Shown piece after piece: positions 26,774 to 47,666 of a DNA stretch of 64,000 bases (positions within the stretch are counted from its first letter, which is position 1; each line of letters starts with the position of its first letter). The stretch is taken from assembly GCA_965195285.1 (NCBI GenBank), contig CBDAFS010000030.1, forward strand, positions 1 through 64,000, written 5' to 3'. The notes beneath the pieces are model-generated. The model did no database searches and had not been told where the DNA came from. It was given only the letters and a program-made list of their open reading frames with translations. The translations under genes and the position numbers were made by a program. This DNA is from an uncultured Aminicenantes bacterium (GTDB lineage Bacteria; Acidobacteriota; Aminicenantia; UBA2199).

Positions 26774-27187
26774 TCAGGATTTCATTTTTTTATTAATAAG
26801 TCTAATGTTTATTAAATGAAAAATAATAAAGGCAAAAAGAACTCCAATAATATTGAATATGGAATCTATTATATTAAATCGTCTACCGGGAATAATTTGA
26901 TGATAAAACTCGATAAAAAAGGCAAAACCGATACCAATGATAAGAAATAAAATCAAGGACTGTAAATTTTGTTTGGGTTTGTCGTTTATAATCCATAATA
27001 AAAATAATATCGACAGGATAAAAAATTCAAGAAAGTGGATGAGATAGTCGAGACGGATGGTAGTACCTCCTGAAGTTTTGATCTTTGGAGTAGGAAGCTG
27101 GGGAAGAGAAGAAGCGATGAAGATGAGAATGAGCCAGGTGAAGAAGAGAAGTTTTGAGTTTTGTTTAATAAATTTGAGTAAGATCAT
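26774..27187 (-). CDS. VanZ-family membrane protein
   Basis: IFIASSLP, DYLIHFLEFFIL, E..Q..IPGR, D...N..G; start taken at ATG 27187 because the upstream codons are repeat-derived. Confidence 0.8.
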   Translation of the reverse strand: MILLKFIKQNSKLLFFTWLILIFIASSLPQLPTPKIKTSGGTTIRLDYLIHFLEFFILSILFLLWIINDKPKQNLQSLILFLIIGIGFAFFIEFYHQIIPGRRFNIIDSIFNIIGVLFAFIIFHLINIRLINKKMKS

Positions 27188-27196
27188 TTTATTAAC

Positions 27197-27420
27197 ATTG
27201 AATAATGAATATCGAATAACGAACACCGAATATCGAAGGAAAGAAATATCTTACAAACCTTGAAATTTAAACATCGAACAAAGAATAATAAATGTTGAAG
27301 GAAAAGAATCATCTTGAAAACATTGAATAATGAATATCGAATAACGAACACCGAATGTTGAAGGGAAAAAACATATTATTCATAGTGAATCATGAATATC
27401 GAATATCGAATAGCGAAGTG
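27197..27420 (+). repeat. Left arm: degenerate heptamer arrays (GAATATC/GAATAAC/GAACACC family) in about 60-nt blocks
   Basis: Visible tandem 7-mers; exact 38-nt direct repeat at 27194-27231 and 27319-27356. Confidence 0.9.
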
Positions 27421-27427
27421 AAAAGGC

Positions 27428-27799
27428 TCATTTTATATTATCATGTGCTGTTTTTATACTGGAAACAAAAATTGAAATCAGTTCATTGCATTCGAGTATA
27501 AGATCATCTACTTTATCGGAATGTTTAACAAGCGGTTTCCTTTTAATAATTTTCAGTGCAATGTATGTTTCTCTCAATTCCTTGAGTGCGATTTTCATTT
27601 TATGGATAAAATCTTTTCCGGACTCTGCACTCTGGGCCTCACCATATATTAAAGCAGGAGCAGTTCCGGACCTGATTATTTGACCTCCGATATAATTTCC
27701 ATTTCTTGTATTTGGCAACTGTTCAGCTAAACTTAATATATTAACAGAAAAAGAAATCAATCTTTCTTCCAAATCATATTTTTTTTTCTCATCAATCAT
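27428..27799 (-). CDS. Four-helix-bundle protein (TIGR02436 / 23S-IVP / Avd-like)
   Basis: DLEERL..F, QIIRSGTAPAL.YGEAQSAES.KDFIHK.KIALKELRET, E.NELISIF. Confidence 0.93.
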   Translation of the reverse strand: MIDEKKKYDLEERLISFSVNILSLAEQLPNTRNGNYIGGQIIRSGTAPALIYGEAQSAESGKDFIHKMKIALKELRETYIALKIIKRKPLVKHSDKVDDLILECNELISIFVSSIKTAHDNIK

Positions 27800-27932
27800 G
27801 CTTCAAAATTCATTATTCAATTTTTATCTTTTTACATTTCGTCATTCATTATTCATCATTCGATATTCGATATTCATTGGTTGATAATACTTCATCATTC
27901 CTTGTTCGACATTCGTTATTCGATATTCAAAA
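27800..27932 (-). repeat. Right arm: reverse-complement heptamer arrays (GATATTC/ATTATTC/GTTATTC)
   Basis: Inverted relative to 27197-27420. Confidence 0.9.
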
Positions 27933-27936
27933 CTTC

Positions 27937-30060
27937 TTATCTCTTGATTGAATCTTGCACGGCAAAAGTAGCCAGAGATGAAGCATAGAGTTCGTCGAAA
28001 GGAATGGGAGAGTGAGAACCGGTTTGGATGGCATTGAAGAAAGCCAATAATTCCTGTTGATGACCCCGATCCGGTCGTCTCAGCCTGAAAGAAGAGATTT
28101 TATTACCGTAAATCTTCATGGATTTGAAATCATTGATGGTCACCGATTGTCCGCTGCAGAAAATTTCCAAGTATTCGGCCGGCAACCGTCTATGTCCGTT
28201 GGAATAGTAGCTGATGGTGGCGATGCTGCCATTGTCAAAACCCAGGCTGATCACCAAGGTATCCTGAAGGTGAGCCGGATCTCTCAGGCTCTTGGCCGAA
28301 ATGGATGAGACCTCGCCACCGGACAGGAAGATGACCAGATCCACAAACTGACACACTTCACTGATGATTACCCCGCCACCGGTTTCGGGATCATGCACCC
28401 AATGGTCTTTGGGAAATTTTTCGCCATTGATCCGGTAATTGATAGCCTTTGGTTTTTCCGGAGGAAACAGTTCTTTTGCCTTTTGAATAAAGGGAGCAAA
28501 GCGGCGGTTAAAACCTGCCATCAGAACAGGAAGCGGCTGGCTGCGGTTGACCAATAGCCGGTGGGTTTCCCAGATGCGTTTCAGGTCATCCTTGGTCATG
28601 GCCAAAGGCTTTTCTACAAATACATGCTTGCTCATGGTCAGGGCCTTGACAACAAATTCCGCATGGAGATCGTTTCGGGTGGTGATAAATACCGTGTTGA
28701 TACGGTCATCGGCAATGATCTCATCGGCATTGCCGGTACTGTAGGCAAAGCCGTATTTGTCAGCTACCTGGCGGGCATTGTGGCTTCGGGCCGTAATCAC
28801 CCCCACCAGATTGCAGTGTTTCCGGATAAACGGTAAAATCGTTTTGCGGGCAAATCCTCCGGCACCGACAAATCCCACGGCCGGATCGACCGGGTCGGTT
28901 GGTTTTTCCTTTAAGGTTACTTTTTTGGAAAGTTCCTTTTCGCTGTCATAATCAATCACCACGCCGCAAAAAGGCTCGGACCGGCTGAGGATCATGGTGT
29001 AGATCTCCGGGGTATCCACCAGGGGAACCGTATGGGAAATCAATTGATCCACCTGTAATTTCTTATTATTCAACAATTCAATATAAGATTGCAGATTGCG
29101 GTTTTCGGTCCAGCGCACATAGCCGATGGGATAATCCTTTCCCCTTATTTCATAAAAGGGATCTTGGCTGCCGGGTCCGTAGCCGCAGGACATACGCAAA
29201 TCCAACTCTTTACGGAAATAGGGTTTACGGTCAAAACCGGTGGCTACTTTTCCGATCACCACCACTTTTCCTCGCTGGCGACACAATAGCCCGGCCAGAT
29301 TCACCGGATCGGTGGTGGTGGAATCCGCAGCGATAATGACCGCATCCACCCCGTTTCCCTGAGAAATTTCGGAAACGATGTTTTCCAATTCCGGATCAAG
29401 GAAATTCAGGGCAGTTATGGTTTTCAAGCCGGCCAACCCATTTACCCGGGCTTTATCACTGTCAACTCCTATCACATCCACGCCGGCTGCCTGCAATACC
29501 TGGATGACCAGCCGGCCGATCAACCCCAGTCCGATCACCACCGCCTTCTCGCTCAGGCGCAGATCAGCCTGGCGCACCCCCTGAATGGCAATAGCGGCAA
29601 TCCCCGCAAAGGCAGCCTGTTTCAAATCGTTTTTCCCGGGGATCTTCACACAGAGGTTCCGGTTGACTGCCACCACATCGGCATGCCATGCCCCTTTTCC
29701 TGCACAGGCCACTTGATCACCGATTTTGATGTCATTGACCTCGTTGCTGACCGCAATGACTTCTCCGGAGCAGCTGTTGCCCAGGGTGGAAGATGCTTCA
29801 AGCTTGTTCATGACCATACGGTAGGTATCGGCCAAACCGCTCTTCTTGATCTGTTCAATAACCTGACTGACCTCGTTTTTTCGGGATATGGCCCGGGCAA
29901 TATATCCCCCCCGGGCCGCCTTGACCATGTTGCCCTCTTCTCCGCCGCTGATTACCGAATAGTGGTTTCTCACCAACACCTGGCCCCGGCCTAATACCGG
30001 AAAGGGAACTTCCAGAATCCGTATGACACCCTTCATTTTTGTGTAAGTTAGTTGTTGCAC
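27937..30060 (-). CDS. Bi-domain oxidoreductase (Zn-ADH-like + Gfo/Idh/MocA)
   Basis: VIGLGLIG, S.GYGPG..D..YE..G.DYPIGYVRWTENRN, VGAGGF, HVFVEKPL, GFNRRFAP. Confidence 0.9.
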   Translation of the reverse strand: MQQLTYTKMKGVIRILEVPFPVLGRGQVLVRNHYSVISGGEEGNMVKAARGGYIARAISRKNEVSQVIEQIKKSGLADTYRMVMNKLEASSTLGNSCSGEVIAVSNEVNDIKIGDQVACAGKGAWHADVVAVNRNLCVKIPGKNDLKQAAFAGIAAIAIQGVRQADLRLSEKAVVIGLGLIGRLVIQVLQAAGVDVIGVDSDKARVNGLAGLKTITALNFLDPELENIVSEISQGNGVDAVIIAADSTTTDPVNLAGLLCRQRGKVVVIGKVATGFDRKPYFRKELDLRMSCGYGPGSQDPFYEIRGKDYPIGYVRWTENRNLQSYIELLNNKKLQVDQLISHTVPLVDTPEIYTMILSRSEPFCGVVIDYDSEKELSKKVTLKEKPTDPVDPAVGFVGAGGFARKTILPFIRKHCNLVGVITARSHNARQVADKYGFAYSTGNADEIIADDRINTVFITTRNDLHAEFVVKALTMSKHVFVEKPLAMTKDDLKRIWETHRLLVNRSQPLPVLMAGFNRRFAPFIQKAKELFPPEKPKAINYRINGEKFPKDHWVHDPETGGGVIISEVCQFVDLVIFLSGGEVSSISAKSLRDPAHLQDTLVISLGFDNGSIATISYYSNGHRRLPAEYLEIFCSGQSVTINDFKSMKIYGNKISSFRLRRPDRGHQQELLAFFNAIQTGSHSPIPFDELYASSLATFAVQDSIKR

Positions 30061-30080
30061 AGGTAATCTCTCATTTCTTT

Positions 30081-30150
30081 AGTAAGTAGTAGGTAGTAAA
30101 AAGTAGGTAGTAAGAAGTAGGTAGTAAGAAGTAAGTAGTAAGAAGTAAAA
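30081..30150 (+). repeat. Heptamer array (AGTAAGA/AGTAGGT) x10
   Basis: Ten consecutive AGTA-NNN units. Confidence 0.95.
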
Positions 30151-30177
30151 AAATAAACGATTTTCTGAAGACAATAT

Positions 30178-30567
30178 TTACTCCGTAATAATGCAAAACT
30201 TTTCAGGCTTATTTATCATTCCAAAAAGAATTCTTCCGAGTTCCTGATATTTTTCATACAATTTCGTATGCTTTTCTTCCTGAAGATATCCATGTTTGAA
30301 AGCAAAATCCAGCCATACTTCTGTCTCACTTGCTTCTCCGATCGAATCGGTTAATTTTAAAACAAAAGATTTCGGATATCTTCGCTTCGCCCATGCTTCA
30401 GTAATGTTAGCGGAAACAGATCGTGATGATCTTCTGATCTGATCAATTAAAGAATATTTTTCTTCTTTTGGAAAAGTTTTACTGATGTTGAAGATTTCAA
30501 CCGCTAGATCAAAACTCAACTGATATGCAATCAGATCTCTGTAACCCCGATACATAGTTTTTTCCAT
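30178..30567 (-). CDS. Four-helix-bundle protein (TIGR02436)
   Basis: YRDL.AYQ, FPKEEKYSLIDQIRRSSRSVSANI.EAW.KRRY, GEASETEVWL. Confidence 0.95.
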   Translation of the reverse strand: MEKTMYRGYRDLIAYQLSFDLAVEIFNISKTFPKEEKYSLIDQIRRSSRSVSANITEAWAKRRYPKSFVLKLTDSIGEASETEVWLDFAFKHGYLQEEKHTKLYEKYQELGRILFGMINKPEKFCIITE

Positions 30568-30571
30568 TATG

Positions 30572-30668
30572 TACTTCTCACTCCCTACTCCTTACTTCTT
30601 ACTTCTTACTTCTTACTTCTTACTCCTTACTTCTTATTGTTTTTTTTCTACTTACTATATACTACATA
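30572..30668 (-). repeat. Heptamer array (TACTTCT) x9 plus TACATAC-type units, inverted to 30081-30150
   Basis: Nine units at 30572-30634; further units run up to the epimerase stop codon. Confidence 0.95.
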
Positions 30669-31823
30669 CTAGATTTTATAAAATTCTTTATACCATTCCA
30701 CAAATTTTCGAATTCCCTCTTCCACCGGGGTATCCGGCCTGTATCCGGTATCCTTTTCAAGACTGGTGGTGTCAGCCCAGGTTTCCAACACATCGCCTTT
30801 TTGCAGGGGAAGGAAGTTTTTTTTGGCTTCTTTATTCATGGCCTTTTCAATAGCGGTGATGAATTCCATCAAGTTTACTGGTTTTCCTCTGCCAATGTTA
30901 TAGATTTTATACGGGGTGAGGAGCGAGAGGTCGGAGGTGAGGGGCTGGGAGTCTTCGAATGTCGAATGATGAATATCGAACGCCGAATTTCGAGTTTTTG
31001 ATTTTTGATTTACTTCTGAATTCGATATTCGGGATTCGTGATTCGGTGTTCGAAGATTGGGAGTTGGTGGTCTGTCCATAACCCGGGTGATGCCTTCGAT
31101 GATGTCATCGATATAGGTGAAATCCCGGCTCATCCGGCCCTGGTTGTAGACATCAATAGGCCGGTTTTTAATAATGGCCCTGACAAATTTAAAAGCCGCC
31201 ATGTCCGGCCGACCCCAGGGACCGTATACGGTAAAAAAACGAAGCCCGGTGGTGGGAATTTGGTAGAGGTGGCTGTAGGCATGGGCCATGAGCTCGCAGC
31301 TCTTCTTGCTAGCCGCATACAGAGACATGGGCTGGTCTACCATATCGGCCGTGGTAAAGGGCATTTTTTGGTTTAGGCCGTATACCGAAGAACTGGAAGC
31401 ATAGACCAGATGGTTGATCTCATGGTGGCGGCAGGCCTCCAGGATGTTCAGAAAACCTTGGATGTTGGAGTCCATATAAGCCTGGGGATTTTGCAAAGAA
31501 TAGCGCACCCCGGCCTGGGCTGCCAGGTGGCAGACCCGGTCGAATGGTTCTTGTTCGAACAGTTCGGTTATTTTTTCCCGATCCTCCAGGTTTAATTGGA
31601 TAAACCGGTAATTGTCAAGAGTCTGGCTTTCCACGGGGATTCCATACTGAATTTTCTCCGAATCGATTCCGGTGTCCTTCAGCCGGCCGTATTTCAGGTT
31701 GACATCATAGTAGTCATTGATATTGTCCAGGCCTATCAGCGTATGACCACTGTTTGCCATCTGTTTGACCAGGGAATGGCCGATGAATCCGGCGGTTCCA
31801 GTTATTAAGATCTTCAAGGTCAA
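30669..31823 (-). CDS. NAD-dependent epimerase (UDP-glucuronate 4-epimerase-like) with an in-frame repeat-derived insertion
   Basis: ITGTAGFIG, HLAAQAGVRYS, YAASKK, FFTVYGPWGRPDMA, RDFTYIDDI; TTG start with AGGAG RBS. Confidence 0.93.
   Translation of the reverse strand: MTLKILITGTAGFIGHSLVKQMANSGHTLIGLDNINDYYDVNLKYGRLKDTGIDSEKIQYGIPVESQTLDNYRFIQLNLEDREKITELFEQEPFDRVCHLAAQAGVRYSLQNPQAYMDSNIQGFLNILEACRHHEINHLVYASSSSVYGLNQKMPFTTADMVDQPMSLYAASKKSCELMAHAYSHLYQIPTTGLRFFTVYGPWGRPDMAAFKFVRAIIKNRPIDVYNQGRMSRDFTYIDDIIEGITRVMDRPPTPNLRTPNHESRISNSEVNQKSKTRNSAFDIHHSTFEDSQPLTSDLSLLTPYKIYNIGRGKPVNLMEFITAIEKAMNKEAKKNFLPLQKGDVLETWADTTSLEKDTGYRPDTPVEEGIRKFVEWYKEFYKI
30952..31056. mobile_element. 105-bp palindromic heptamer-repeat insertion inside the epimerase CDS
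   Basis: Ends TCTTCGAA...TTCGAAGA; arms of GAA-N4 7-mers; removal restores a GGAGTTG heptamer and keeps the frame. Confidence 0.8.
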
Positions 31824-31839
31824 GGTCTCCTTATATCAT

Positions 31840-31925
31840 AGGTTAAGGTTGAGGTTAAGGTAAAGAAAAAAACAGAAAATTTTTCCTGATTATCTCTCTT
31901 ATTCTTTTCCTTTATCTTTACCTCA
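31840..31925. repeat. Hexamer (AGGTTA/AGGTAA) array with inverted partner
   Basis: 31840-31865 versus 31909-31925. Confidence 0.7.
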
Positions 31926-32106: not shown

Positions 32107-33075
32107 CTATCTTCTGAATTTTTTTAATTCCCGCTCAAATCCATCAATCATCAGTTTTATTTCATGGTTCTCAATGGATTCCAGCATAAAACGCCTTACC
32201 ATCTGGGAAACCGCCACATAATCCATTTCCACCAGTTCCCCGATCTCCCGCAGCCGCAGGTCACTGTATTTCTTCAAACCATACAGGAACAGCTTTCGGA
32301 AGTGGTTGTTTTTGCGCTTTTTGTACAGCAGCTCTCTTTTAACCCTGAAGCGCCGGCATATGATGCGGGAGATATCTTCGGGTTGGAGCCGCCTCAGACT
32401 CTTCAGGGCCGGTTTTTCCCGGATCTCTCCCATTCTCAGGTCAGCCTCTATCTTGCGGGCAATCTTTCGGCGAAATTTTTCACCGCCTACGATCGACTGC
32501 ACCCCGTAGAAATCTTCTTTTTTTATCCCCTCATCCTGATTCAGCAGGTCATAGACATACTTGCGGTAAAATTTCTTTTTGTTATTAAATTCGCTCAGGA
32601 GTTCGGCGGTGACCAGCCATAGCGGCCGTTTTTCTCTGCCGATGTAGCGGGCAAAACTGCTCCAGGGGTAATCTTCGGGTTTTTTAACCTTACCCTCCCG
32701 CAACGGGGTCAGGTGGATGTAAGCGCTCAACCTCATCAAATAACCGTTTTTTTCCACCAGAACGGCCCGGTAGCGGCCCTGGAAAACCGAGCCCTTGACC
32801 CCGTACTTGAGCTTGAACCAGTTTGAGTAGCTGGAGTTTAAATGGTGCATACAGCGGGAGAGATTGCCCTCCGGGGTTTCGATGAGCATGTGGAAACGAT
32901 CGTCCAGAAGGGTATAGCAGTGGACCTTGAGGTTGAACTTATCCACCACCTCGCCGGTTTTTTCCAGGAATTTCAGCCGGTCAACCTTTTCATGAAAAAT
33001 CTTCTCATGCTTGTCTCCCTGGGACATCACATGGTAACAGGCGCCCTTGTACTCTATACGGGGTTGTCGAGCCAT
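32107..33075 (-). CDS. REP-associated tyrosine transposase (RAYT, Y1_Tnp) with C-terminal DnaA_C-like HTH; HUH motif degenerate
   Basis: MARQPRI, YHV, G.VFQGRY, YIHL.P, YPWSS; C-terminal LREIGE...DYVAVS; RFH replaces HxH. Confidence 0.88.
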   Translation of the reverse strand: MARQPRIEYKGACYHVMSQGDKHEKIFHEKVDRLKFLEKTGEVVDKFNLKVHCYTLLDDRFHMLIETPEGNLSRCMHHLNSSYSNWFKLKYGVKGSVFQGRYRAVLVEKNGYLMRLSAYIHLTPLREGKVKKPEDYPWSSFARYIGREKRPLWLVTAELLSEFNNKKKFYRKYVYDLLNQDEGIKKEDFYGVQSIVGGEKFRRKIARKIEADLRMGEIREKPALKSLRRLQPEDISRIICRRFRVKRELLYKKRKNNHFRKLFLYGLKKYSDLRLREIGELVEMDYVAVSQMVRRFMLESIENHEIKLMIDGFERELKKFRR

Positions 33076-33153: not shown

Positions 33154-33479
33154 AGGTTGAGGTTAAGAAAGAAGGTTAAGGTTGAGGTTGAGGAAAAGAA
33201 AAAAACCACTGGTCATTAGAACTCTCTGGGGACTTGTCATTATATCTATCAAGTTCTTGTCATTGAAACCCTCTGATTTTGGTCATTAAGAACTATCATA
33301 ACATATCATTACAGTTCTCCAGGGTTCTTTATGACGCACGCATTATGTGCTAATGACAAGCTCTCTATAGATCTTAATGACACGAGCGAAGCGAGTAAAT
33401 GACCAGATTAGTGATATTCATCTTCAAAACTTCTTATCTTCTGAACTTCTGTCTCCTTAATTCTAAGGTTAAGGTTAAG
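33154..33479. repeat. Composite element A, copy 1: hexamer array + GTCATT/ATGAC 22-24 nt periodic array + CTTCT octamers
   Basis: GTCAT at 33212, 33236, 33259, 33282 (variant at 33305); ATGAC at 33331, 33353, 33377, 33399; homologous to 47336-47666. Confidence 0.85.
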
Positions 33480-34878: not shown

Positions 34879-35661
34879 ATGTATATGCGTTTGCTTCAAT
34901 TAAAAATTAAACCCGAAGGCCTTGAACTGGCCCAACATTATTACAAAGACACGGTGGTGCCCCGGTTACGCACCATGCCGGGATGCCGGTTTGCCCGGCT
35001 GATCCAGAACCACTCCGAGCCCAGTGATTTGATATCCATGACCCTGTGGGAACGCCGGCAAGATGCCGAGGCCTTCCAGCAGAGTCCGGTCTTCAAGCAG
35101 ATGATGGCCGAGTTTTCCGTATTTTTAGCCGATAGTTCGGTCTGGAAGATACAGTTGAGCCAGAAGCTGGAACTGGAATACCGGCCCAAAACCCAGGAAC
35201 CGGTGACCCAGGCCTTCCCGGTATCCACCCAGAAAATCCTGGTCAAGCCGGAAAATTGCGTATCTTCACCTCTGTTTGTGCGCATTGTCCAGCATAAGAT
35301 CCAGCCGGGTAAAATGGAAGAATTCCGGAAACTGTACCGGGAAAGCATTATTCCCGTTCTGGAAAAAACCCGGGGCTGCTGTTCGGCCTATCTGATGGAA
35401 AACATGCAGAACGGCGAAGAAGTGGTGTCCATCACCGTCTGGGAAAACCAGCGGGCTGCGGAAGATTATGAACAGAGTGGACAGTTTCAGGTATTGATCG
35501 ACCGGGTCAAACACTGCTACACACGGCTCTTTCAGTGGAAAATGTCTTTGGCCCAAAATGGGGAAAAGCAGGCCAAGACCAGCGATGATATGCAGGTGGA
35601 TCATTACACCGTGGTTTCAGGGGAGGAGTTTGGGGATTCACCAACAAAAAACAGGACTTAG
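34879..35661 (+). CDS. Tandem antibiotic-biosynthesis-monooxygenase (ABM) domain protein
   Basis: Two repeats of R....KI.P...Y....P.L....GC..A.L....SxT.WE....AE.(Y/F); GGGAGG RBS. Confidence 0.8.
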   Translation: MYMRLLQLKIKPEGLELAQHYYKDTVVPRLRTMPGCRFARLIQNHSEPSDLISMTLWERRQDAEAFQQSPVFKQMMAEFSVFLADSSVWKIQLSQKLELEYRPKTQEPVTQAFPVSTQKILVKPENCVSSPLFVRIVQHKIQPGKMEEFRKLYRESIIPVLEKTRGCCSAYLMENMQNGEEVVSITVWENQRAAEDYEQSGQFQVLIDRVKHCYTRLFQWKMSLAQNGEKQAKTSDDMQVDHYTVVSGEEFGDSPTKNRT

Positions 35662-36172
35662 GTTAAGGTAAAGGTAAAGGTTGAGGTTAAGGTTAAGAAA
35701 AAAAATAAAACTATTAAAACCTCCTTAATTTTCATATCTCTTTACCTTTACCTTTGCCTCAACCTTAGAATTAAGAAGTCAGGAGATAGAAATCCGAAAT
35801 CCCAAATTCTAAATCCGAAACAAAGAGATTATTAATAAACATTGAATGATGAACACCAAATATTGAATGATGAATATCGAATAACGAACACCGAATATCG
35901 AAGGAAAGAAATATCTTACAAACCTTGAAATTTGAACATTGAACAAAGAATATCGAATGTCGAAGGAAAATAATCATCTTAATTAACAGTGAATGATGAT
36001 CACCGAATGTCGAATCATGAATGTCAAAGTGAAAGATTCATTTTTTTTTACACTTCATCATTCCTTGTTCGTTATTCATTATTCGAAATTCAAAATTAAA
36101 TACTATTTTCCTTTACCTTAACTTTTGCCTTTACCTTTACCTTTACCTTTACCTCTACCTTTACCTTTGCCT
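35660..36172. repeat. Intergenic repeat mosaic: hexamer hairpin, AAATCCG heptamers, gene-less four-helix-bundle cassette, hexamer array
   Basis: Modules at 35660-35767, 35790-35824, 35841-36095 and 36110-36172 fill almost the whole space between two convergent stop codons. Confidence 0.88.
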
Positions 36173-39100
36173 TTATTTTACCTTTAGTTCAAAGCTCTGT
36201 GAATGGCTGTTAAACTCCGGGGCATACATGCATTCGATGTGGGCCATGCCGCTCTGAAACCGGCCCCGGTGTACCACCCGAAGGGAATATTCAAACACAT
36301 AGGTCCCCTTGGGCAGGTAATCAATGAAAAAATGGGTGGCTGTATCCAGGGTGGATTCGTAATAAGCCAGTCCGTCCTGGAACTTATATCGGGATAGCAC
36401 ATTCACCGGTTCCAGGCCGCTGCCCCGATGGTCTTTCATATGGACATACTCCATATCCCGGTCGGTTCGCAGCTCGATCCGGACCACTAACAGATCACCC
36501 ACCCCCAGGCTCCCTTGATAGGGTTCGATCATCGGTCCTTTGTCGGTGAAGCGGCGCACAAACAGGCGCTTCTTCAGTTTCAGGGGATTTCCGGTATGGG
36601 GGGTGATTTTTGAGATATCTTCCAGGTACTGCCAGTGAACCCCGCCCCAGGCAATGCCCTTGTCCTTTTTGGAAACCGTAATCCGGCCCATATCCGCAAT
36701 AATATCCCGGGGCTGATAGACCTTTTCATAGTAACCGGTCCCGGCTTCCGGTTTTTCGATTTCCACCTTTTGGCCACCCAGGGTGACCTCTACCGGTAAA
36801 TCCGAAGCCAGCAAGTCGTCTCCCCGCAGCAGCACCGCATACACCGCATCGGCAGTGGCCTTGGTGGTTTTCCAGTCCCGGGCCTGCTTTTGTTTCAGCA
36901 GCCACACCTTACATTCCTCAACAGCCTGGTGGTCTCCCATTACTTCATCAAAGGCCTCGATCATCACGGCCTGGGTTTCGATGGGAGCCCGGAACCACCA
37001 CCAGGACAGTTCCGTTTCCCGCCAGTAACGGCCTAATTCCTCATTGAACCGGCTCCTTTCCTTGATGGAATGCATGATTTTACGGGCAGTTACCGAATCC
37101 CCGAAGCGGTTCAGGGCCAGGGCCAGCTGGGCCTGATTCTGGCGATGGCTCAGCTTCAGCCAGTACTCACGGGCCTGTTGGAGAAAATAATCCACGGCTT
37201 TCTGGTATTTTGAAGAAAGCGGATGCTTTTTCAGATAATAACTGCGGCCGTACAGGTACAGGGCAACCCGGGAACCCAGATTATTGGATTTCAGATGTCC
37301 CCTGGACACAATACGGTTGTAGACTTCCAGGATCCGGTTATCCAGGAACCGGATGGCTTTTCCGGTCAGGTCAAGGGGAATGTCATCCACGCCCAGGTGT
37401 CGGAGCCGGCCGAAACCGGTAACAATATAGAGAGTAATATAATGGTTACCCGGTCCCCCCGGAAACCAGGGCCAGGAGCCATCACTCAGCTGCATGTCTT
37501 CTAATTTCAGGTAGGCGCGTTTCAATTCCCGGTCCAGTCGGTTTTCATCGAAGAGCAGGCCGACCCGGTGTTTGGCCTGGGTTTCATTTTGGGCCTGCCT
37601 CACCCAGGGGCTTTCCCGCAACAACACACTTTTCAGATCCGGGTTTTTTTCCAGGTTGGACTTCAGAGCCCCGCTTGCCTTCCAGCGGTTAAAAATCCGG
37701 TGGATTCGGGGATCGGAATGGGCGATGTGGCGGGCCAGGCCATTGGCATAGAGCCGGTTGAATACCTGCTCGGAACACTCATGGGGAAATTCCATCAAGT
37801 AAGGCAGGGCCTGGACCGCATACCAGGCCGGATTGGAGGTCATCTGAACGGTCAGTCCTTTGTGAACCAGGGTTTTAGAGCCGGAGGAAAGGGACAGTTT
37901 TCTGAACTCGAACCGTTTTTCCCCCTGCTTGCTGATCCACAGGGGTATGGATTCCCGCACCAACAGCCGGCGGCTCAAAACCGGCAGAACTCCCTCTTCG
38001 CCGTCAGAATATTCTTCAGTGGCACCCACGGCCCGGAAAGCCACCATATCCAACCCATCCGGGACCTTAATCCGGAATCTCAGGGTCCGGGACTGTTTGG
38101 AGGGGATGGAGAAGGTCTGGTCTTTATCCCGGTTGTTCAGGGAATCATCCAGGGAGGTTTCATTCTGTGGATTAAAAAATTGGAGCCTCAATGACCCGCT
38201 TTCCGGTTTATCCGACATATTGGTTACCTTTACGGTGAATTCGAGCTCATCACCCTCCCTTAAAAACCGGGGCGGGTTGGGCTGGACCATGAGGTCCTTG
38301 CGGGTTATGGAGCGGCCTTCGATGCTGCCGTATTTCATATCAATGGTATGCGCAAAACCGATAAACCGCCATTCGGTCAGGGCTTCGGGCATTTTAAATT
38401 CAATGGTCACGGACCCGTCCCCGGCGGTCTTCAGATGGGGATAAAAGAAGGCGGTTTCATTTAAATTCTTTCTGGCCTGGACTTTGGAAAGATCAATTTT
38501 TTTTCCACCCTTATCCCTGTCTCCATTTCGTTTTGTCTCCTTTATGGTGGCATCCTTTCCTCCGGAAACTCCGTTAATATCTTCGTATGACAGCACCAGG
38601 GCCTCCCCAAGCGCTTTACTGAACATTTCTTCGGGCCTTAACACCTTCTGTTTGCTGACATGTCGTCTGGACCCGTACTGGTAACCGAAGAGGCTCTGGA
38701 TCACCTCTTGGGGAAAGTGCGCATAATTGGCTGCTGAATATGAATAGCGGACATTCAGGCGGTTGATAAAATTTGAGAAATCAATCCCTTGGTTGGAAAA
38801 CCGCAAACGCAGGGAAGTACTGTCCGCATCGAAAAGGTTTGAAAAACCCTGAAAAAAATGGGGATAGTACTGGTCCAGTGACACATCATAGAGGGTGGCC
38901 ACCATTTCCGCGGCCCTGATTTCAGAACCCGGACCCTTGATCTTAAGAGACCAGGTTTCCTTCTGGCCCGGTTCCAGGGTGGAGCGGAAGGTCTGCCACT
39001 GGAGTTGCAGTTGTTTGTTATACCAGGGCACATAGACCCGGGTGGTGGTTTGATACTGGCGATTCTGCTTGACCAGGGTGGCTACCAGGGTAAATCCACC

Positions 39101-42310: not shown

Positions 42311-42695
42311 AGGTTTAGGTTAAGGTAAAGGTAAAGGTAGAGGTAAAGGTAAAGGTAAAGACGTGAAACGTAAAGAGTAAAAGGTGAAGACGTAAGGCGT
42401 AATACGTAAAGCGTAAAATGTGATTGGTAATTGGTTAACTGTAGGGGCGAATGGAAATTCGCCCAATTGTTTATATCGATTTTTCATATTGGTTGTAATA
42501 ATCATCTCTTTCAGGGCAAACCGCCGTTTGCCCCTACAACAATTTTTCTCCTAATCTAAATTTGTTTTTGTTTTGAATTTTGGACATTTGAGTTTTGAAT
42601 TTGTTTCGGATTTAGAATTTGGGATTTCGGATTTGTTTCTTCTGGATTCTTACTTCTGAGTTAAAGGCAAAGGTAAAGGTAGAGGTAAAGGTAAA
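42311..42695. repeat. Intergenic repeat mosaic with GTAG REP doublet
   Basis: Hexamers 42311-42360, CGTAA heptamers 42361-42417, REPs 42441-42464 and 42514-42537, heptamers 42600-42634, hexamers 42664-42695. Confidence 0.88.
42441..42537. mobile_element. REPIN-like doublet of GTAG-family REPs
   Basis: GTAGGGGCGAATGGAAATTCGCCC ... GGGCAAACCGCCGTTTGCCCCTAC. Confidence 0.85.
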
Positions 42696-42872
42696 AAGAA
42701 AAAATTGGCGGGCGTAGCAAACTATCTCCGGAACGGCTTGTGAAACCATTTTCTCGAATATCGAAAAATGGTGGAACGCTCACAAAAATGAGAACATTTT
42801 TGTGTAAAGTGAAGGAGATGTTTGTGAAAGCCCGGAGGAGTTCTATAGCTGACTCAAAGGTTGAGAATGTTC

Positions 42873-46479: not shown

Positions 46480-46699
46480 AGGTTAAGGTAGAGGTTAAGG
46501 TTAAGAAAAAAATTGTTGTAGGGGCAAACGGTGGTTTGCCCGAATCAGAAATCTATTACAAATTGATCAAAAAAGAATAGGGCGAATTTCCATTCGCCCC
46601 TACAGTTAACCAATTACTAATCACATTTTACGCTTTACGTATTACGCCTTACGTCTTTTCCTTTACCTCTACCTTTAACTTTACCTTCACCTTAACCTC
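46480..46699. mobile_element. REPIN-like doublet (46518-46603) nested between inverted hexamer arrays; inverted copy of 42387-42545
   Basis: 46580-46657 is the reverse complement of 42387-42464 with one mismatch. Confidence 0.88.
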
Positions 46700-47271: not shown

Positions 47272-47335
47272 TTTTCCTCCTTTCAAATCGTACTGGTTGT
47301 TCAGAAGAATGGTAGTATGGAGAAAAATAAAAGTC

Positions 47336-47666
47336 AAGGCTGAGATTGAGGTAAAGGTAAAGGCAAAGGTAGAGGTAAAGGCAAAGAAGGAAAACCGCTG
47401 GTCATTAGAACTCTCTGACTTTTGTCATTTAGAACTATCATAACTTGTCATTGAAACTCTAAAGAACTTGTCATTAAAAAACTATTATAACTTGTCATTA
47501 TAGTTCTACAGAGCTCTTAATGACGTGAACGCAGTGAACTCATGACGCATGTTTTACATGCTAATGACGCACGCATCGCGTGCTAATGACACGAGCGAAG
47601 CGAGTAAATGACAAGTTGATTTGTTCTTAACTTCAGAACTTCTTATCTTCTGAATTCTAAGGTTAA
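47336..47666. repeat. Composite element A, copy 2
   Basis: GTCATT at 47401, 47424, 47447, 47470, 47494; ATGAC at 47520, 47542, 47564, 47586, 47608; 29-mer identical to 33375-33403. Confidence 0.88.

Follow-up and report, generated by a model that had tools for sequence, protein, structure and literature searches.

Among described systems, the closest to the element considered here are the intervening sequences (IVS) of 23S ribosomal RNA (rRNA) that carry an open reading frame (ORF), known from Coxiella burnetii and Leptospira, in which an ORF of the PF05635 family lies in the loop of a long stem formed by terminal inverted repeats (PMC4990558). The Coxiella IVS has a 28-bp terminal stem and tandem heptameric GACAGAT repeats ahead of the S23p ORF, and is cleaved by RNase III at the first repeat (PMC4990558). 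The element in question is a small gene cassette at positions 30081-30668 of a stretch of 64,000 nucleotides (nt) from an uncultured Aminicenantes bacterium (contig CBDAFS010000030.1 of assembly GCA_965195285.1, positions 1 to 64,000 of the forward strand; hereafter the window), and consists of a four-helix-bundle protein gene enclosed by inverted arrays of short tandem repeats. It resembles ORF-bearing IVS in the loop position of its PF05635-family ORF, in the tandem heptamers directly ahead of this ORF, whose number varies between strains, and in being a predicted RNase III substrate (PMC4990558). It differs from them in its location between the protein-coding genes of an operon instead of in helix 45 or 25 of 23S rRNA, in arms of about ten units compared with two to four, and in the strong purifying selection acting on its ORF family, whereas the Coxiella ORF is reported to be decaying (PMC4990558). 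In positions 25000-48000, no Rfam family attained its gathering score, and the cassette does not lie inside a 23S rRNA gene. It is best filed as an IVS-type element outside rRNA with protein-clade-specific arms.

Tandem heptamers have also been described from Xanthomonas (GGGAATC) and Nostoc (GGGGAYT; PMC4692102) and from Beggiatoaceae (TAACTGA; PMC4679880). Like the repeats studied here, these are intergenic tandem 7-nt units whose array length varies among species (PMC4692102, PMC4679880), and those of Xanthomonas are frequently arranged as convergent inverted pairs (70-75 cases; PMC4692102). In contrast, the repeats of the present cassettes enclose a four-helix-bundle gene and co-vary with it, and the main texts of PMC4692102 and PMC4679880 mention neither intervening sequences nor S23 nor a helix bundle. 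Searches of open-access papers and preprints that combined the family with tandem, heptanucleotide or inverted repeats gave no hits, and those for the family name with TIGR02436 gave annotation mentions only; in a paper on the Riemerella capsule, such a gene is listed, uncommented, with an epimerase on one side and a dehydrogenase on the other. Within the open-access text covered, heptamer precedents are either the Coxiella IVS or come without a link to the PF05635 family.

The Avd protein of diversity-generating retroelements, which is pentameric and binds nucleic acid, belongs to the same four-helix-bundle fold family. Its profiles match the cassette protein weakly and below curated cut-offs (PF22296, 38 bits compared with 40; NF033474, 29 bits compared with 80), the neighbouring genes here belong to sugar metabolism, and no reverse transcriptase (PF00078) was found in the 94.9%-complete genome. 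The cassette thus lacks both the above-threshold Avd profile match and the neighbouring reverse transcriptase of a diversity-generating retroelement. Genes of the cassette protein's own family, annotated as 'four helix bundle protein', are among the commonest annotations in bacterial genomes, and we know of no function for the family.

The cassette gene (30178-30567, minus strand) encodes a protein of 129 amino acids (aa) that belongs to the Avd-like 23S rRNA intervening-sequence protein family, with matches to PF05635 (112.1 bits, cut-off 33.8, E 1.9e-32; residues 10-115 aligned to profile positions 1-105 of 106) and TIGR02436 (106.6 bits, cut-off 24). In gene orientation, its 5' arm (30573-30674, minus strand; about 12-14 heptamer units) ends 5 nt ahead of the start codon, and its 3' arm (30080-30151, minus strand) consists of about ten TCTTACT or ACCTACT units. 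These limits are the wider call of a lag-based array detector. Tandem Repeats Finder described 30080-30148 as a period-7 array (9.9 copies, 75% matches), and better as a period-14 array of TAGTAAGAAGTAGG (4.9 copies, 92% matches), a 14-nt super-unit in which AGTAAGA alternates with AGTAGGT on the plus strand; on the other side it found TACTTCT with period 7 at 30572-30636 (9.3 copies, 86% matches) and 3.4 additional copies at 30648-30671. Read on the minus strand, the 5' arm is built of AGTAAGA, AGTAAGG, AGTAGGG and AGTGAGA units and the 3' arm of their complement, so that the two arms are mutually inverted (70 nt, 80% complementary, spacing 414 nt). With array scores of 33 and 55, the two arms stand well above the 95th percentile of 13 in 1199 control segments of 200 nt from related loci. 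An earlier interpretation made from the letters alone (the sequence-only reading) had described heptamer arrays on both sides of the gene and an element that abuts the stop codon of the upstream epimerase gene. Tandem Repeats Finder agrees on the former, with about ten AGTAAGA-type units per side, and the stop codon (30669-30671) even lies within the outermost heptamer units of the 5' arm.

Within the 3.28-Mb assembly of 62 contigs, of which the window is contig C30, six four-helix-bundle genes were identified: contig C42 carries four, and the remaining two are those of the window. Each of them is part of a polysaccharide operon, among genes for Wzy-type ligases, CpsB, a tyrosine-kinase-like ATPase, a sugar transferase and epimerases, is co-oriented with its neighbours and has inverted arrays of its own. 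The first paralog of the window (27428-27799, minus strand, 123 aa) carries GAAT-type arms of GAATATC-like units, compared with AGTAAGA at the target, and the two proteins are only 20% identical, in line with the divergent paralog and different heptamer that the sequence-only reading had reported. The cassettes on contig C42 have the cores GTTCTAN (C42:21891) and AGAAGRT (C42:26440) or, in two of the six cassettes, units of period 8 (GAAGWTNN at C42:16110 and GGTTGACY at C42:23928). Arrays within 120 nt of both gene ends were found at five of the six four-helix-bundle genes and at 13 of 2649 other ORFs of at least 100 aa, an enrichment at the former. The sixth gene, 27428-27799, has one side under the array threshold, and Tandem Repeats Finder reports arrays on both of its sides, the 5' arm at 27838-27928 and the 3' side at 27185-27417, where a 62-nt unit is repeated 3.7 times and each copy comprises about six GAAT-type heptamers and an A-rich spacer.

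The repeat core and its period of 7 or 8 nt proved specific to the protein subfamily, on both arms and across phyla. Using single proteins as queries, relatives of four paralogs were collected with one genome per species, yielding 79, 80, 80 and 60 loci (299) from many phyla; each locus was labelled with the most frequent of four cores predefined from the cassettes of this genome, counted in 120 nt per side with the downstream side reverse-complemented. Relatives of the target carried AGTA in 29 of 77 loci (GAAG 10, GAAT 3, GTTC 1; none or tie 34), those of the 27428 paralog GAAT in 52 of 78 (GAAG 2, none or tie 24, AGTA and GTTC 0), and those of C42:21891 GTTC in 20 of 74 (GAAG 9, none or tie 45, AGTA and GAAT 0). 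Among relatives of C42:16110, all 15 loci of at least 60% identity were labelled GAAG, and 26 of 34 below 60% were labelled AGTA. When the cores were read in the opposite orientation, 72/77, 66/78 and 70/74 loci received no label, and in control segment pairs at least 500 nt away any one label occurred in at most about 3%. On a protein tree of 227 rows, of which 123 were labelled and from which rows with internal stops or odd lengths were left out, the labels require 14 changes, compared with 57-64 after shuffling (ten of 200 shuffles listed). The association between protein clade and repeat type for which the sequence-only reading had asked is therefore present, with few cross-labels. Residue positions 15, 19, 59, 77, 117, 121 and 124 discriminate the clades, a signal that is confounded by descent, and what we put forward is co-variation of protein and repeat, not a reading code.

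Period follows the same divisions. Relatives of C42:16110 with at least 63% identity, which come from Brocadia, Nitrospinae, Desulfobacterales, Chlorobiaceae, Nitrospira, Bacteroidota and Aminicenantes, have period 8 in 28 of 29 arrays (score at least 10) with the unit GAAGWT, whereas among relatives of less than 55% identity, which group with the target, 56 of 62 arrays are of period 7, mostly with AGTA, a contrast that was also inspected by eye. The 255 arrays of the three other clades have period 7 in 203 cases, period 8 in 32 and period 9 or 10 in 20. Of the earlier proposal that period 7 and inverted geometry are conserved while the sequence is not, the inverted layout thus holds, whereas period 7 is only the majority state and a trait of particular clades. 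The clades also differ in how units are arranged: target-clade arms consist of AGTA-R-G-N units in no fixed order, and in the 27428 clade both sides carry an ordered module (GAATATC, GAATATC, GAACAAG, GAAT and so on) about 10-60 nt outside the gene. The exact 14-mer GAATATCGAACAAG recurs in 17 of 333 loci, every one of which comes from the set of 80 collected for the 27428 paralog; immediately ahead of the gene it stands on the plus strand, and immediately behind it on the minus strand. These 17 loci belong to Planctomycetota, Verrucomicrobiota, Ignavibacteria, Bacteroidota, Desulfobacterota, Brocadia and others.

Fourfold-degenerate sites are at or near saturation between the genes of this genome and their relatives. 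In the first three clades, identity at these sites was 428/1411 (0.303), 566/1643 (0.344) and 287/1159 (0.248), compared with 0.295, 0.287 and 0.255 expected from base frequencies, and in the fourth clade (C42:16110) it was 136/371 (0.367) compared with 0.33. As core, period and inverted layout persist nonetheless, the flanks are kept by selection and not by recent common descent. Furthermore, different cassettes in one cell keep different cores, so the constraint would not come from a general host factor, and the protein is the only cassette-specific product. By exclusion, this points to each protein reading its own repeats. The subfamily-specific repeat recognition suggested by the sequence-only reading is accordingly borne out as an association of clade and core, while recognition as such would follow from this exclusion argument.

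We consider it somewhat probable (roughly 55%) that the locus is an insertable gene cassette of the 23S rRNA intervening-sequence type, residing in a polysaccharide operon and encoding a protein that recognizes its own arms, presumably with read-through transcription and RNase III cutting. The protein would bind its arms sequence-specifically, one core per step of 7 or 8 nt, and this recognition would keep the arms conserved because it is needed for the upkeep or spread of the cassette. Read-through from the operon promoter would transcribe the cassette, the arms in that RNA would pair into a stem of about 70 bp, and RNase III would cut this stem as in IVS, which would release the cassette RNA and separate the flanking cistrons. 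The ring-shaped RNA-binding regulators TRAP and HutP, which read spaced triplet repeats, offer a working analogy for an oligomer that contacts one short core per subunit with non-conserved spacers between. They have unrelated folds, bind a single RNA leader and lack inverted flanking arrays.

Several observations weigh against this reading. Binding, cleavage and movement are predictions, and the loci without a label or with a tie are numerous in the three sets counted above; most of them carry drifted cores (CAGT, GAGT, GATTG or GGTT), which indicates drift within clades. Shared descent among the relatives means that label counts such as 52 of 78 overstate independence. Only five of the 54 arrays of the genome that score at least 18 have a four-helix-bundle gene within 150 nt, and the hexamer AGGTAA family of 19-20 arrays has no matching gene in the 94.9%-complete assembly. 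The Coxiella S23p is, according to its authors, probably not made in vivo (PMC4990558). Pairing of the arms is slightly stronger in sense than in antisense RNA (133 loci favour sense and 96 antisense; mean difference 1.1 kcal/mol, p 0.03), a comparison for which the null duplexes are a poor control, being strong themselves (mean -30 kcal/mol). Arm length has its mode at five units (78 of 270 arms), and as a sign of a pentamer this gains nothing, since arrays in control segments also peak at 4-5. Finally, a site in Draconibacterium orientale (L267) that was considered as a clean vacant site is a deletion remnant, in which the gene and the 3' arm are lost and about 3.5 units of the 5' arm are kept.

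The cassette is co-oriented between operon genes and leaves no room for signals of its own. Upstream lies a gene for a NAD-dependent sugar epimerase (30669-31823, minus strand, 384 aa) and downstream one for a fused zinc-ADH-like/GFO-IDH-MocA oxidoreductase (27937-30060, minus strand, 707 aa). Across the related loci, both neighbours are co-oriented in 149 of 173 cases, compared with 229 of 304 for other adjacent ORF pairs at the same loci. Promoter and terminator scans showed no excess of sites over shuffled sequence; the sole promoter-like match is weak (9 of 12) and lies in the 5' arm, and the terminator scan found no minus-strand terminator within the cassette. The minimum-energy fold of the sense RNA pairs the two arms (-166.8 kcal/mol, z -7.2, none of 20 shuffles as good), so that an enclosing stem of terminal inverted repeats, such as IVS have, is predicted, and the genome encodes RNase III (236 bits, cut-off 166). 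This stem and the RNase III gene, together with the strong co-orientation with operons, the slight excess of sense pairing and the cleavage of IVS by RNase III (PMC4990558), are also what would be seen if the arms were a cis-acting RNA hairpin alone, serving as a processing or stability signal, with an unrelated protein and cores that simply travel with the gene. We regard this as unlikely, because a stem needs complementarity but neither a fixed core nor a fixed period nor a tandem build, whereas the cores, and even one exact 14-mer, have outlasted the randomization of silent sites across phyla, and the period switches cleanly with the protein clade. Moreover, the arms vary in the same way instead of forming complementary, wobble-tolerant sets, and the protein is under strong purifying selection in those relatives in which this could be measured, with a ratio of nonsynonymous to synonymous substitution rates (dN/dS) of 0.04-0.06 in five Draconibacterium pairs.

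The variation of the cores also bears on whether the protein would bind DNA or RNA. Tolerated transition variants of the core are alike on both arms (RAAY, RGTR and GTTY): in the GAAT core, AAAT and GAAC are allowed on both (35 and 30 cases), while GGAT or GAGT never occur (0 and 0), and the AGTA and GTTC cores show the same symmetry. Comparison of core variants on both arms revealed no G-U wobble pattern. Such symmetry is expected of a protein that reads duplex DNA or both strands of DNA, although it could alternatively arise by exchange between the arms. On this basis, we lean slightly towards DNA rather than RNA as the probable target of the protein.

Four-helix-bundle genes are not the only places with arrays, and this genome has many heptamer arrays without a gene. 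Arms of a resident type but without a gene were found at 35859-36084, where inverted GAAT-type arms with nine matches to the 14-mer (up to 2 mismatches; 0.65 expected) are nested in hexamer AGGTTA/TTTACC arrays (35660-35713 and 36106-36174), at C41:17452-17757 (AGTAA-type) and, again inverted, at C42:674-787. A resident core is present in 17 of 29 period-7 or period-8 arrays remote from the genes, compared with 23% expected for random heptamers, several of these arrays lying near cassettes and so not being independent. In addition, a gene-less inverted pair lies in frame in the epimerase gene (30945-31072, minus strand), with five CGAATNN units separated by a 25-nt loop from five or six NNATTCG units. 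It encodes an extra surface loop of about 30 aa, which is absent (short loop) in 12 of 13 related epimerases. In a related strain (run X5), 69 other letters replace 126 of this array, and in the epimerase ortholog of a same-genus genome (L253) this loop holds another in-frame array, made of about 19 CCAGCCN heptamers.

These gene-less arms bear on another alternative, in which the arms are the terminal inverted repeats of a DNA transposon-like element and contain many binding sites, the four-helix-bundle oligomer is an end-binding or synapsis factor, a host enzyme or one supplied in trans cuts and joins, and the gene-less arrays are non-autonomous copies akin to miniature transposable elements with inverted repeats (MITEs). 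TnpA, which binds the subterminal repeats of En/Spm, provides a comparison. The cassette has terminal inverted repeats, as transposons, MITEs and IVS do, and the same motif, including exact 14-mers, stands inverted on both arms. The gene-less copies, the resident cores in remote arrays and the in-frame pair that differs between close strains would fit such an element as well, as would the occurrence of near-identical cassette types in different phyla and at different sites: the closest relatives of the target (up to 70% identity) are from Bacteroidota, Ignavibacteria, Deltaproteobacteria and Chloroflexi, with unrelated neighbouring genes. However, the cassette encodes no transposase, recombinase or reverse transcriptase, its sole ORF being the four-helix-bundle gene, and no known transposase fold or catalytic motif is present in it; the genome search for a reverse transcriptase likewise found none. 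Neither a target-site duplication nor a clean empty site was detected at the one comparable gene-less site, that of D. orientale, and no empty site of the target cassette was found among relatives, whose contigs break at the arrays or lack synteny. A contiguous 7-bp step would also be awkward for a ring-shaped binder given the helical repeat of duplex DNA, and although the genome has 17 Y1-transposase-like genes, hexamer arrays lie near only 2 of the 16 examined. We consider this explanation doubtful.

The arrays grow and shrink by whole units, and cassettes decay to gene-less arrays. Two related sediment strains have contigs that span the cassette, with identities of about 94-96%, and one of these contigs has exactly 14 nt, or one super-unit, fewer in the 3' arm (at 30101). 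In a same-genus genome, the epimerase (68% identical) ends in AGTAAGT AGTAGGT units and is followed by a four-helix-bundle ortholog that is cut by the contig end. For the GAAT cassette (27428), a same-genus genome shows about 3 and about 6 units, with a single short arm on the 3' side, compared with about 12 units and the 3.7-fold 62-nt block here; at this site, a further genome of the genus carries hexamer and octamer arrays without a gene. Draconibacterium carries two target-clade cassettes in adjacent intergenic sites around one ABC-ATPase gene (D. sediminis, L030, 2938-3400 and 4308-4746), the first of these sites being the one with the remnant in D. orientale; in four species the stop codon of the upstream gene lies inside the first CAGTNNN unit.

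Such whole-unit changes between close strains, and different arrays at the same intergenic site within the genus, are what would be expected if the arrays arose as by-products of replication slippage or of recombination at hot spots within variable polysaccharide loci, and the genes simply tended to lie at junctions of this kind. The clustering of 37 of the 54 arrays on three contigs and the hexamer arrays that flank unrelated small genes are in keeping with this. Slippage accounts for changes in length but not for a core and period that are kept per clade across phyla at saturating divergence, and it leaves the enrichment at five of six genes compared with 13 of 2649 unexplained. This explanation is already disfavoured, and we regard it as very improbable.

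Beyond this locus, a more general proposal is conceivable, which we put forward tentatively and rate as possible but short of probable. PF05635/TIGR02436 might be a very large family of sequence-specific nucleic-acid readers, in which each subunit of an oligomer reads one core of 4-5 nt at a fixed step of 7 or 8 nt and the cognate inverted arrays are the ends of an unnamed class of mobile cassettes, with autonomous copies that carry the gene and copies that lack it. Such a class could explain the ORF-bearing IVS of rRNA, the long-puzzling heptamers described from Beggiatoaceae, Nostoc and Xanthomonas, and repeats inserted in frame into proteins, the present epimerase being one. An oligomer is suggested by solved relatives of the 129-aa protein (phmmer; 2rld, E 1.7e-11, and 2gsc, E 6.4e-9), both with five chains per entry, and by the crystal structure of the Xanthomonas S23p, a homopentamer (PMC4990558). 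Repeats whose core and period co-vary with the protein offer a concrete and cheaply testable lead on the function of the family, and a single type of element would tie together rRNA intervening sequences, the abundant heptamer repeats of bacteria and the repeat-filled junctions of polysaccharide loci. If the code is modular, these proteins could become programmable binders of repeat arrays.

Some further features of the locus and its relatives were recorded. Runs X2, X5 and X6 gave no coverage over 27424-27785, and coverage over the target gene was low in X5. Among RNA runs, none was listed as containing the stretch. Skipping joints around 27315-27897 in strain contigs were considered as traces of excision and set aside, as their sides are short and of low likeness and probably derive from gene-less arrays elsewhere. 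In two loci of another family of the same class (L250 and L251; G028:C7), a four-helix-bundle gene lies directly 3' of a homolog of the fused oxidoreductase (37-41% identical).

The most abundant array family of the genome is the hexamer AGGTAA/AGGTTA (complement TTTACC), and 20 of the 54 arrays have period 6, the majority of them belonging to this family. Within the window, hexamers also occur at 42311-42360 and 42663-42703, at 46480-46505 and 46655-46698, and at 47323-47386, in addition to the pair at 35660-35713 and 36106-36174, and further sites are on contigs C41, C15 and C16. Inverted pairs of these hexamers are frequent at gene ends, and none of them adjoins a four-helix-bundle gene. 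The Y1 transposases, which resemble repetitive extragenic palindrome (REP)-associated tyrosine transposases (RAYTs), were considered as makers of these arrays and rejected, as the two genes with hexamer runs mentioned above are the only ones of the 16 examined, among 17 Y1 matches, to have them within 1.5 kb. One Y1 gene of the window (32107-33075, minus strand) encodes a 322-aa protein combining a Y1 (IS200-like) transposase domain with a DnaA C-terminal-like helix-turn-helix, scores 61.8 bits against the REP-associated tyrosine transposase model (cut-off 80), and has direct AGGTTA/AGGTTG hexamer runs on either side (31840-31865 and 33154-33193). At C16:4626-5148, hexamer arrays together with inner heptamer arrays enclose a gene for a 105-aa membrane zinc-ribbon protein.

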